DNA of 64,000 nucleotides from the IMG/VR virus record IMGVR_UViG_3300035670_000141, positions 11,883 to 75,882 of that record, one strand, 5' to 3'. A program made the position numbers and the translations under genes. Below the pieces are notes generated by a model that did not search any database, had not been told where the DNA came from, and saw only the letters and a program-made list of their open reading frames with translations. This DNA comes from a virus. Shown piece by piece: positions 50,281 through 52,833 of the stretch. How positions within the stretch are numbered: position 1 is the stretch's first letter; each line of letters begins with the position of its first letter.

Positions 50281-51300
50281 ATGGCTCCCAATCAACACGT
50301 CACATTAACAAGTGATCAGGATGACATTTATCATACATTAACTGCACTTCGCAGTATCAATAGGTTGATAAATCTTCCAGGATGGGATGATGTAGCTAAA
50401 GATAGAAATTTGCAAGGATTAGACTCTCTTGCTCATCAGCTATTAGATGTCAACTGGCAGTATATTGTTGCGGGAATACCTAAATCAACTACAGTAGAAA
50501 TTGAGCGATCTCAATCCTCTCATCCTCCAGAAATAGACATGGTTCAAATTCCGGCCGGCCGCTTCCTCATGGGATCGTTTGCGGGGGAGGCGGGAAGGCA
50601 AGACGACGAAGGCCCTCAGCATCAGGTGAACTTGCAGTCGTTCCTGATGAGTCGCACGCCGATCACTCAAGCCCAGTGGCGGGCTGTTGCGCAGATGGAG
50701 CCGCCGCGCGGGCAGACCTGGCCTGATGAGCTGAATCCCGATCCGGTTGCTGGCTTGTCCGAGCAATTCCGGGGCGACGACAAGCCGGTGGTGAATGTGG
50801 ACTGGCACAATGCGATGAATTTTTGTAACCGCTTGAGCCAACTCACTGGCCGCAAATATACCTTGCCCAGCGAAGCCCAATGGGAGTACGCCTGCCGCGC
50901 GGGCACGACGACACCCTTTGCCTTTGGCGAAACCCTCAGCAGCGAGCTGGCCAACTACGACGCCAGCGTCACCTATTGCAACGGCACGAAGGGCGAGTAT
51001 CGGGAGCAAACCACACCCGTGGGGATGTTCCCGGCCAATGCCTGGGGGTTGCAGGACATGCACGGGAACGTGTGGGAATGGTGCCTGGATCATTGGCACG
51101 CGAGCTACAAGGGAGCGCCCGAGGATGGAAGCGCCTGGTTGGAGGAGAAGGCGTTACAGGAGCCGCCAAGGCTGCTGCGCGGCGGCTCCTGGTTCTCCGT
51201 TCCCCACCTCTGCCGCTCGGCCTTCCGGCTCAGCAACCACCCCGGCATCCGCAGCGGCCTCGTTGGGTTCCGTGTCTGCTGCCCTATTCAATCCCAGTAG
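50281..51300 (+). CDS. FGE-sulfatase/CLec-fold protein 1 (DGR-target-like)
   Basis: LPSEAQWEYACRAG, NAWGLQDMHGNVWEWC, RGGSW...GFRVCC. Confidence 0.9.
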   Translation: MAPNQHVTLTSDQDDIYHTLTALRSINRLINLPGWDDVAKDRNLQGLDSLAHQLLDVNWQYIVAGIPKSTTVEIERSQSSHPPEIDMVQIPAGRFLMGSFAGEAGRQDDEGPQHQVNLQSFLMSRTPITQAQWRAVAQMEPPRGQTWPDELNPDPVAGLSEQFRGDDKPVVNVDWHNAMNFCNRLSQLTGRKYTLPSEAQWEYACRAGTTTPFAFGETLSSELANYDASVTYCNGTKGEYREQTTPVGMFPANAWGLQDMHGNVWEWCLDHWHASYKGAPEDGSAWLEEKALQEPPRLLRGGSWFSVPHLCRSAFRLSNHPGIRSGLVGFRVCCPIQSQ

Positions 51301-51409
51301 TTCATTTCAACCATTACAACAGATTGTTACGACCCTGCCCCGTTGGCGGCAGGGTCCTTTAGAGTAATCACATCGGAGGCAGAGATGCCTCCTCAACTCA
51401 CCCCAGCAA

Positions 51410-51658
51410 ATGAACCCCATCGCTTTTGACCGTCCCCGCGCTAAAACGGTTGTTGCCGGCATTTTTGCTGTACTCGCCTCAGGTGCCTACATCAACCGTG
51501 CTTTCATCGTTCGTCGATTTGCCGAAGCTGGTTATGCTGATCACCTGGCCGCCCGCTATGCTGATGCGCTGATTGCCCGTAATACCGATATAGAGCACTT
51601 CTCCCGCTGGAAAGTGTGGGGTACAGGCGACCGCATCACATACAGCCTTGCTGGCTAA
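51410..51658 (+). CDS. Small early hypothetical protein
   Basis: Has its own promoter, 5' hairpin and terminator. Confidence 0.6.
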   Translation: MNPIAFDRPRAKTVVAGIFAVLASGAYINRAFIVRRFAEAGYADHLAARYADALIARNTDIEHFSRWKVWGTGDRITYSLAG

Positions 51659-51801
51659 TCCTAGCTAATCACTCTCTCGTAAACCCCTCAATTGAGGGGT
51701 TTTTTATGGTTTTGCGTGATTGTAACAAGTTGTTAAGGGTTTTCACCAGCGACCACCTAATTACCTATGATTGTAAAGCTATTCGACCATCACCAGATTT
51801 T

Positions 51802-52833
51802 ATGGCTCCTAATCAAGACGTATCATTGACAGCCGATCAGGACGACTTGTCTTATACATTAACCGCACTTCGCAGTATCAATAGGCTAATGAGGCTACCA
51901 GGATGGGATGATGTAGCAAAAGCCAGGAATTTACAAGGATTAGACTCCCTTGCTCATCAATTACTAGATGTTAGCTGGCAATGTATTGCTGGAATACCTA
52001 AATCAACTACAGCAGAAATTGAGCGATCTCAGGCGTCTTATCCTCCAGAAATAGAAATGACATGGATTCCAGCTGGATCATTTCTTATGGGATCGCCCCT
52101 GGAGGAGGGGAGTGATGACAACGAGAGTCCTCGTCATGAGGTGAACCTGTCATCATTCATGATGAGTCGCACGCCTATTACACAGGCCCAGTGGCGGGCT
52201 GTGGCGCAACTGGAGCCGCCGCGCGGCCAGGCTTGGCCTGATGTGCTGAATCCATATCCGGTGGCCGGATTGAGCAATCCCGATCGGTTCCGGGGCGACG
52301 ACAAGCCGGTGGTGAATGTGAGCTGGAACGAGGCGATGGCCTTCTGCTATCGCCTGCGGGTGCTTACCGGCAAGGATTACACCTTGCCCAGCGAAGCCCA
52401 ATGGGAATATGCCTGCCGCGCGGGCACGACGACACCTTTTGCCTTTGGCGAAACCCTCAGCAGCGAGCTGGCCAACTACGACGCCAGCGTCACCTGTGGC
52501 AACGGTCCCAAGGGTGAGTATCGCCAGCGAACAACCCCTGTGGGCATGTTCCCGGCCAATGCCTGGGGATTGCAGGACATGCACGGGAACGTGTGGGAGT
52601 GGTGCCTAGATCATTGGCACGACAGTTATGAGGGAGCCCCCAGCGATGGCAGCGCATGGTTGGACGGGGAAGGCTTGGATGGTGAACAGAGCAGCAATGA
52701 AAGGCTGATGCGCGGCGGTTCCTGGTTCAGCCCCTTTCAGTTCTGCCGCTCGGCTTGCCGCAACGGGAGTCTCCCGGACGACCGCAGCTACCTCAGGGGT
52801 TTCCGCGTTTGTCGCCCCACCTATCCCCGGTAG
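51802..52833 (+). CDS. FGE-sulfatase/CLec-fold protein 2 (DGR-target-like paralog)
   Basis: Same motifs as paralog 1; divergent RGGSW...GFRV segment. Confidence 0.9.
   Translation: MAPNQDVSLTADQDDLSYTLTALRSINRLMRLPGWDDVAKARNLQGLDSLAHQLLDVSWQCIAGIPKSTTAEIERSQASYPPEIEMTWIPAGSFLMGSPLEEGSDDNESPRHEVNLSSFMMSRTPITQAQWRAVAQLEPPRGQAWPDVLNPYPVAGLSNPDRFRGDDKPVVNVSWNEAMAFCYRLRVLTGKDYTLPSEAQWEYACRAGTTTPFAFGETLSSELANYDASVTCGNGPKGEYRQRTTPVGMFPANAWGLQDMHGNVWEWCLDHWHDSYEGAPSDGSAWLDGEGLDGEQSSNERLMRGGSWFSPFQFCRSACRNGSLPDDRSYLRGFRVCRPTYPR

Follow-up and report, generated by a model that had tools for sequence, protein, structure and literature searches.

The 64,000-nucleotide stretch of DNA analysed in this work (hereafter the window) spans bases 11883-75882 of the 75,882-bp IMG/VR record IMGVR_UViG_3300035670_000141, a cyanophage genome that CheckV rates as 100% complete and whose overall GC content is 0.435. 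Two paralogous genes of this phage, A and B, lie in tandem on the plus strand (Table 1), are its sole genes of the FGE (formylglycine-generating enzyme) type and end in variable regions (VR_A and VR_B) of the kind written by diversity-generating retroelements (DGRs), in which a reverse transcriptase (RT) uses a template repeat (TR) as the source of mutagenised cDNA. The locus is best described as an orphan, probably static DGR-type VR borne by chimeric, effector-less lectin genes of an RT-less cyanophage. Taken as a whole, the reading of A and B as captured and recombined host lectin domains whose DGR footprint is now static is the one we lean towards, with a confidence somewhat above even. 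Each gene joins an AT-rich orphan N-terminal domain to a lectin domain that descends from the DGR targets of freshwater Cyanobium-type picocyanobacteria. A host DGR would have written the footprint in that lineage; this footprint would then have reached the phage by capture and been reshuffled by recombination among family members of phage and host, which would also account for the mosaic make-up of A and B and for their unlike 3' blocks.

The last ~108 nt of both genes carry an adenine-poor, NNC-rich codon footprint. Adenine occupies 7 of the 108 positions in VR_A (6.5%) and 10 of 108 in VR_B (9.3%), compared with 21% in the core of the genes (p = 1e-4 and 2.5e-3, respectively), and cytosine is found at the third position of 28/36 codons in VR_A (78%) and 23/36 in VR_B (64%), against 35% and 33% in the corresponding cores (p = 2e-6 and 6e-4). 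Comparison with the nearest host TR shows that, of the 27 template adenines, 21 are replaced in VR_A and 18 in VR_B; among the 78 other bases the corresponding counts are 11 and 12 (p = 3e-9 for VR_A and 1e-6 for VR_B). Codon by codon, VR_A reads TTC TCC GTT / CCC / CAC CTC / TGC CGC TCG GCC / TTC / CGG / CTC AGC AAC CAC / CCC / GGC ATC / CGC / AGC GGC CTC GTT, followed by GGG TTC CGT GTC; 14 of its 16 variable codons are NNC, the other two being GTT, and they fall at positions that coincide with AAC or AAT codons of host templates. This substantiates the proposal of the original prediction, made by a reader of the letters alone, that the variable codons of gene A are mostly NNC, as A-to-N mutagenesis of AAC codons would give. 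VR_B is the weaker version that had been anticipated, with non-NNY codons (CAG, GGG, AGG) at variable positions and a conserved scaffold Pro replaced, and the VR of a related gene from another phage (L001, described below) likewise has non-NNY codons at variable positions and has lost the Cys of the CRSA motif. The changes in these two VRs look like decay, as drift after freezing would give. The significance of the adenine-site signature implies that a DGR of this family wrote VR_A and VR_B at some time. A scenario dispensing with DGRs, in which diversifying selection acts on the C-terminal loops and the codon usage of a GC-rich gene alone produces the NNC bias, could draw on the fact that C-ending codons are common in such a gene anyway, as seen in the core, but it has to face the excess of third-position C and the adenine deficit of VR_A, the coincidence of the changed positions with TR adenines of homologous host DGRs and a whole clade of relatives that are demonstrable TR/VR pairs; we consider it extremely improbable.

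Domain searches and base composition both describe A and B as fusions. The proteins match the Pfam family PF03781 (FGE-sulfatase) with E-values of 9e-60 (A) and 2e-52 (B), corresponding to scores of 202.8 and 178.8 bits (curated cut-off 23.3), over positions 4-253 and 4-254, respectively, of the 255 in the profile. Gene A also matches PHROG 18508 (E = 4e-85, positions 17-264 of 266), a family annotated as 'kinase', and Pfam found no kinase domain in either protein. Among sequences of solved structures the closest matches are PvdO (5HHA, 5e-46), TvpA (2Y3C, 2e-21) and FGEs (about 1e-18). Catalytic FGEs hold a pair of catalytic cysteines in the segment that follows RGGS. Each VR segment has one Cys only, and in the sequence search the FGE structures score below PvdO. 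PvdO of Pseudomonas is a periplasmic pyoverdine-maturation protein that has no VR; the VR of TvpA from Treponema denticola aligns with VR_A, TvpA being a bacterial lipoprotein diversified by a DGR of its own genome. The first 85 codons of A and B have a GC content of 0.38-0.42 and a third-position GC (GC3) of 0.15-0.40, and the lectin cores have values of 0.60-0.62 and 0.6-0.95; in gene A, GC3 climbs from 0.15-0.35 over codons 1-80 to 0.75-0.95 from about codon 100 onward, and gene B behaves alike. This jump at the domain junction marks both genes as compositional chimeras of a phage-type N terminus and a foreign GC-rich lectin domain, and the unameliorated GC3 of the lectin part beside a phage-like N terminus argues for recent exchange with GC-rich donors. 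The two open reading frames (ORFs) with an AT-rich N terminus fused to a GC-rich FGE-sulfatase/C-type-lectin domain that the original prediction had drawn are therefore confirmed by ORF calling, Pfam and composition alike.

The N-terminal domain has no match in Pfam; a word-based search with it returned only the genes of the window itself, and a profile search against 1.84 billion representatives retrieved only the cluster of protein P0005 and four weak matches. The family consists of A, B, the L001 gene, P0005 and P0006, the L001 gene lying at 9902-10927 of a 45-kb phage of 58% GC that is rated complete, and P0005 and P0006 being its protein-level alleles; protein P0007 belongs to the same lectin clade and has a different short N terminus. 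A structural model built from a 6-sequence alignment predicts, with low confidence (mean pLDDT 39.9), three helices. Scanning of viral contigs with gene A, the L001 gene, the N-terminal domain and the exact VR_A scaffold pattern yielded no further phage. The lake-water run X4, which belongs to another study, contains at 50200-50633 a sequence akin to the N-terminal region but with 22 differences in 434 nt, so that related phages exist outside the source study; over 50200-52960 this run has only diverged relatives and host-like homologs.

The lectin part of the chimera can be traced by sequence comparison to host DGR-target genes. Its nearest cellular homologs, 56-72% identical, belong to freshwater Cyanobium and Synechococcus genomes or metagenome-assembled genomes (MAGs). 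A script that finds repeat pairs whose mismatches sit on the adenines of one copy identified TR/VR pairs in the host loci, typically with 15-25 mismatches of which 90-100% fall at TR adenines, with RT genes beside them and several VRs per locus. DGR-bearing loci of this kind include L009, L010, L013, L015, L018, L026, L035, L043, L062 and L080, and at least two TR classes can be told apart in picocyanobacteria, one ending ...GFRVCC/VVC and the other RGGSWINNPHNARAAFRNSNHP...GVRPGC. A survey of cyanobacteria published in 2020 reported DGRs to be absent from Synechococcus and Prochlorococcus and none to lie definitively on a prophage (PMC7517822); contrary to the first statement, the freshwater Cyanobium/Synechococcus genomes examined here clearly have DGRs. 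A tree of 116 lectin cores, calculated with the VR excluded, unites the six phage-type genes (A, B, L001, P0005, P0006 and P0007) with an SH-aLRT support of 97. Their sister is the C-terminal domain of L005_+6625, a host protein of 916 aa, and the two lineages together are enclosed by a Cyanobium clade (support 99); within the phage group, A pairs with B (support 95). The gene of this host protein adjoins TIR and AAA genes and lies near ftsH and psbO. The nesting of the phage clade among Cyanobium-type DGR targets, the host-like GC3 and the footprint at TR adenines all speak for the suggestion, put forward in the original prediction, that the phage captured domains already diversified in the host.

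Less can be made of the contrast between the two paralogs. It had been remarked that A and B are near-identical in their cores and divergent in the VR; long identical stretches exist and the VRs do diverge, but so do further patches outside the VR. An alignment of 1.2 kb from each gene, flanks included, gives 88% nucleotide identity, which decreases to 78% over the stretch of lectin core and VR, and along the alignment identity alternates between ~96% (in stretches such as 50872-50951) and 57-70% in at least three patches outside the VR (~50558-50637, 50792-50871 and 51112-51179). Several 45-nt windows place A nearer to L001 or to the host locus L005a than to B, and in the 90 nt just upstream of the VR (alignment columns 676-765) A is host-like (0.87-0.88 identity to L005a), whereas B resembles L001 (0.84-0.89) and has a 12-nt insertion in common with it. 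These differing resemblances imply that the 3' blocks of A and B, VRs included, are of different ancestry through recombination, and a divergence that is mosaic makes homing in situ unnecessary as an explanation for identical cores with divergent VRs. The argument that the core is identical and the VR alone divergent was therefore rejected as evidence for homing, and the A/B contrast is, at the level of sequence, no specific evidence for a DGR.

The search for a DGR that might act on these genes was negative in the phage itself. No match to RVT_1 or to Avd (PF05635) was found in the complete 75.9-kb genome, and blastn with a word size of 7 revealed no third VR-like copy or TR in it; the absence of RT and TR noted for the window thus extends to all 75,882 bp, which also disposes of the alternative, raised beforehand, of a full DGR elsewhere in the phage. 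Outside the phage, RTs do occur in the candidate hosts, and a TR differing only at adenines was not found among those sampled. Of the TRs sampled from hosts or metagenomes, 36 distinct sequences in all, none fits the phage VRs: over 105 nt the best still differs from VR_A at 11 and from VR_B at 12 non-adenine sites; over 111 nt the phage VRs are 16 (A) and 14 (B) non-adenine mismatches away from the nearest TR, as compared with 59 of 112 host or viral VRs that lie within three such mismatches per 111 nt of a sampled TR. When the VR_A scaffold was searched as a pattern, with N in place of the variable codons and at most three mismatches tolerated, it had no match in 401 host-family genomes, its exact-match version none in IMG/VR, and blastn of the VR_A stretch none among the PLSDB plasmids. 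Moreover, host VRs and TRs have in common, in the TR classes sampled, a 3' stretch (...TGTTGCCTCCCCCAG / ...GTCTGTTGCCTCCCCCAG) before they part. The phage genes leave this host-type stretch after GTCTGCTGCC (A) or GTTTGTCGCC (B) and reach their stop codon at most six codons further on, the 3' ends of the phage VRs being ...TGCTGCCCTATTCAATCCCAG and ...TGTCGCCCCACC. At the protein level the phage clade ends in GFRVCCP[I/V/A] plus the stop (GFRVCRP... in gene B), and the host-type 3' stretch, equivalent to the initiation of mutagenic homing (IMH) site, is absent by comparison with the same TR classes.

Population data were consulted in the form of Logan contigs. In runs X1 and X2 single contigs cross VR_A (~51070-52317) with 0 differences, and further contigs, starting at 52466 in X1 and 52578 in X2, cross VR_B to 52960 and beyond, again with 0 differences; such contigs drop rare variants. 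X1 is possibly the source sample and X2 is another sample of the same study, and a contig of run X3 covers 51090-51240, also with 0 differences. Contig breaks fall in the core common to A and B and not in the VRs. This identity speaks only against strong VR heterogeneity. As far as these data reach, the two observations that had been named beforehand as pointing to frozen captures, namely no TR with adenine-only mismatches in phage or host and no VR polymorphism, both hold for the TRs sampled and at the resolution of contigs, in which rare variants stay hidden. From this negative evidence, that is, no RT, Avd or TR in the phage, no sampled host TR that fits, no host-type 3' homing end and identity across samples, we infer that the VRs are now static in this phage.

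The same observations bear on the possibility that A and B are live remote targets, the phage parasitising a host DGR in trans as the original prediction had contemplated, with host RT, Avd and TR-RNA writing mutagenised cDNA into the phage VRs during infection. Candidate hosts carry DGRs with several targets each, the literature (PMC10907252, PMC7517822) recognises in-trans targets that share a genome with their DGR, and VR_A is fully compatible with adenine-only mutagenesis of one hypothetical TR. Nevertheless, support for such writing was not obtained: even the best TR leaves the mismatches at non-adenine sites given above, the VR_A searches in host-family genomes, IMG/VR and PLSDB were empty, the phage VRs are devoid of the 3' sequence common to host VRs and TRs, VR_B is changed at scaffold sites, the contigs of 2-3 samples do not vary, and the hairpins downstream of the genes are accounted for by a candidate promoter cassette. 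Cyanobacterial remote targets (Vallota-Eastman 2020, PMC7517822; Dore 2024, PMC10907252) have the same FGE-sulfatase/C-type-lectin domain with the VR at the 3' end, the same RGGSW..CRSA..GFRV scaffold, the same adenine-poor, NNC-rich footprint and a distant RT. In those systems, however, RT and TR reside in the same genome as the target and the TR matches at non-adenine sites, whereas A and B are carried by a phage, match no sampled TR, lack the host-type 3' end and have an orphan N terminus of ~85 aa in place of any effector or signalling domain.

Two further cases bear on the trans possibility. Gene gp062 of the Microcystis phage Ma-LMM01 and its orthologs in MaMV-DC and similar phages (PHROG 18508) encode, like A and B, effector-less FGE-sulfatase/C-type-lectin proteins with a DGR-type VR in RT-less cyanophages. 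Ma-LMM01 (L213, 2118-2948), MaMV-DC, CH01, DL01 and DH01 (the MaMV orthologs, L214-L217) have one lectin gene each and no RT. Gene A and gp062 are ~69% identical in nucleotide sequence, but gp062 has no homolog of the N-terminal domain and is a single copy instead of a tandem pair. Ma-LMM01 and the MaMV orthologs are 92-100% identical in most 60-nt windows and 72% in the VR window, where codon differences are found mostly at positions 1-2 of NNC/NNT codons. The VR was replaced between the Japanese and the Chinese lineages, and the four isolates of the latter are mutually identical; VR turnover thus occurs in phage-borne copies. The Microcystis plasmid p1FD4 contains a full DGR locus (TIR, MoxR, lectin target, avd, TR, RT and a second target), and its TR (L236, 10775-10900) differs at 3 non-adenine sites in 111 nt from the Ma-LMM01 VR and at 7 from the MaMV VR, while the VRs of A and B are far from every sampled TR. 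The second case is a putatively viral contig, L002 (IMGVR_UViG_3300046011_007986), with four tandem short FGE-sulfatase genes at 2550-6017 adjoined by pentapeptide-repeat and sigma-70 genes. Over 85-93 nt, the VRs of these FGE-sulfatase genes depart from the TR of L018, a Cyanobium MAG from Lake Mendota, at 1-4 non-adenine sites, and the host 3' tail is absent in two of the three copies with ends read. Both the proximity of phage VRs to a host TR and the replacement of the VR between RT-less lineages count in favour of writing in trans. On the other side, the centre of the Ma-LMM01 VR (...GCG ATT CGC TAC GAC TAC TAC...) equals host VR alleles in three Microcystis genomes or plasmids, which indicates descent or recombination rather than fresh mutagenesis, and phage and host copies form an identity mosaic along the whole gene. 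Descent from host alleles, or recombination with them, would explain the Microcystis turnover at least as well as retrohoming in trans. The Microcystis case raises the prior for trans writing or import in general and leaves the evidence for the present phage unchanged, and for A and B we judge ongoing writing by a host DGR to be unlikely.

A third origin of the footprint would be a cis-acting DGR once present in an ancestral or related phage and since lost, of which the VRs would be fossils. The classical DGRs are those of phages, where they diversify lectin-fold proteins such as Mtd of Bordetella phage BPP-1. This precedent, mentioned also in the cyanobacterial survey (PMC7517822), counts in favour of such a loss, as does the occurrence of the gene family in two phages as different as the present one and L001. 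Mtd is likewise a phage lectin-fold binding protein with a C-terminal VR followed by a hairpin, but in BPP-1 avd, TR and brt lie in cis and Mtd is the tip of the tail fibre, whereas A and B have no DGR cassette, appear to be early or accessory genes located outside the tail module and are followed by the hairpin of a promoter-type cassette. Furthermore, an RT was found in none of the five IMG/VR records with homologs, two of them rated 100% complete, and in none of the five Microcystis phages, and the cores nest in host genes with a VR scaffold of the host TR type. We consequently hold the fossil of a cis DGR to be very unlikely.

The preferred reading of captured and now static host domains is itself open to several objections. 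VR_A is 'clean' enough for one hypothetical TR to explain it, and may have been recently written by a TR that our set did not sample; picocyanobacterial TR classes are diverse, some host VRs also have no sampled TR, and the hosts compared are candidate hosts of this phage. The contigs omit rare variants and would therefore miss low-level hypervariation, and two of the sampled runs belong to one study, one of them maybe the source. In addition, a gene of orthologous kind in the Microcystis phages has a VR that lies near the TR of a host plasmid and has undergone replacement between phage lineages, and a decoy function of the proteins is proposed from domain architecture.

With regard to that function, many of the host relatives display the same lectin domain behind TIR or SEFIR domains; host protein P0034 matches the PADLOC model bSEFIR (E = 2e-69) and host protein P0027 a ThsB-like TIR, and a published proposal sees DGR-diversified lectin domains of cyanobacteria as antigen sensors in conflict systems directed at phages (PMC10907252). 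The phage lectin domain is 61-62% identical to those of P0034 and P0027 but comes without an effector domain, and none of the PADLOC models matches proteins A and B. A and B can thus be described, from their predicted architecture, as effector-less lectin-fold binding proteins in which the sensor domain only stands behind a small orphan helical domain. It is tempting to speculate that they are probably soluble ligand-binding proteins, which would be made early in infection and bind their ligand through the former variable surface, and a sensor-only decoy directed against the lectin-based defence sensors of the host is one possibility. That host DGR rewriting in trans, or regular import of host VRs, would maintain a changing decoy against DGR-diversified TIR/SEFIR-lectin sensors seems to us still more doubtful than writing in trans as such. 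Were it true, decoys or writing by the host DGR would represent a new coupling of a host hypermutation system and a virus, for which we found no description in the literature searched, and with trans writing or regular import, virus and host would be engaged in an arms race fed by one common source of hypermutation. The footprint is real and probably inherited, and the locus alone is no evidence for cross-genome mutagenesis. An effector-less host sensor domain is present in at least three cyanophage lineages, i.e. the present phage with the L001 type, the putatively viral L002 array and the Ma-LMM01 family, which suggests that phages repeatedly capture the host sensor module. The literature examined on cyanophage DGRs, remote targets and the Ma-LMM01 sulfatase contained no description of cyanophage-borne DGR-type lectin genes, and a large metagenome DGR survey could not detect remote targets (PMC8144416). 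A and B offer a concrete gene pair for tests of binding partners and of counter-defence.

Table 1. Features of the A/B locus (positions are those of the window).
Feature	Position	Strand	Size	Description
Candidate promoter, conserved box TAACAAGTTGTTAAG	50202-50216	+		Upstream of gene A
Gene A	50281-51300	+	339 aa	Orphan N-terminal domain + FGE-sulfatase/C-type-lectin domain
N-terminal domain of gene A	50281-50535	+	~85 aa	Phage-like composition
VR_A	51178-51285	+		RGGSW...GFRVCCP; DGR-type variable region
Cassette 3' of gene A	51314-51392	+		Box TTACAACAGATTGTTAC; GC hairpin 51331-51356; GAGA-loop hairpin 51375-51392
ORF between the paralogs	51410-51658	+	82 aa	Hydrophobic stretch, GC 0.55; terminator-like hairpin + T run at 51681-51702
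Candidate promoter, conserved box TAACAAGTTGTTAAG	51723-51737	+		Upstream of gene B
Gene B	51802-52833	+	343 aa from the ATG aligned with the gene A start	Paralog of A
VR_B	52711-52818	+		RGGSW...GFRVCRP; weaker DGR-type variable region
Cassette 3' of gene B	52847-52925	+		Box TTACAACAGATTGTTAC; GC hairpin 52864-52889; GAGA-loop hairpin 52908-52925

The hairpins that follow the two genes deserve separate comment, given that a GC hairpin after each stop codon had been listed among the DGR-like features of the locus. Both hairpins are present, but as parts of a recurrent candidate promoter cassette that is not specific to DGRs: each stop is followed, in this order, by TTCATTTCAAC[C/T]A, the box TTACAACAGATTGTTAC, a 9-bp GC hairpin, a -10-like element and a second hairpin, GGAGGCA-GAGA-TGC[C/T]TCC, which contains GGAGG and ATG. 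This GAGA-loop hairpin recurs at 55407-55424 and, with a slightly different stem, at ~32169-32186 on the minus strand, and the cassette copy at 55407 has a different hairpin in its spacer. In the copy behind gene B, pairing of the GC hairpin is kept, relative to that of A, through two G-U pairs, which fits a role at the RNA level on the sense strand. A DGR cruciform was accordingly discarded as an interpretation: the GC hairpin is flanked by a recurrent promoter box and a -10-like element, its place is taken by a different hairpin in another copy, and the G-U pairing of the B copy suits RNA but not DNA. Host VRs have plain GGCGCC-loop-GGCGCC stems behind them, and a T run follows in most cases. 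The GGAGG of the GAGA-loop hairpin resembles a Shine-Dalgarno motif, and by hiding the ribosome-binding site of the gene that follows this hairpin may control translation. Short frames starting at these hairpins were seen to begin with MPPQL or MLPQ.

The surroundings of A and B, as annotated with Pfam, comprise thyX on the minus strand, a J-domain protein and a DUF932 protein, by which the region can be assigned to an accessory or early part of the genome and not to the tail module, in agreement with the placement of the two genes among early genes by the original prediction. Both genes have recurrent boxes of a putative early-type promoter ahead of them. The ORF that separates the paralogs matches no Pfam or PHROG family and has no counterpart 3' of gene B. 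An ORF at 48302-48682, also without a family match, belongs to a second GC-rich island (0.55-0.63 GC) located at ~46600-48700, just upstream of the thyX/lectin region, which may be another foreign insert.

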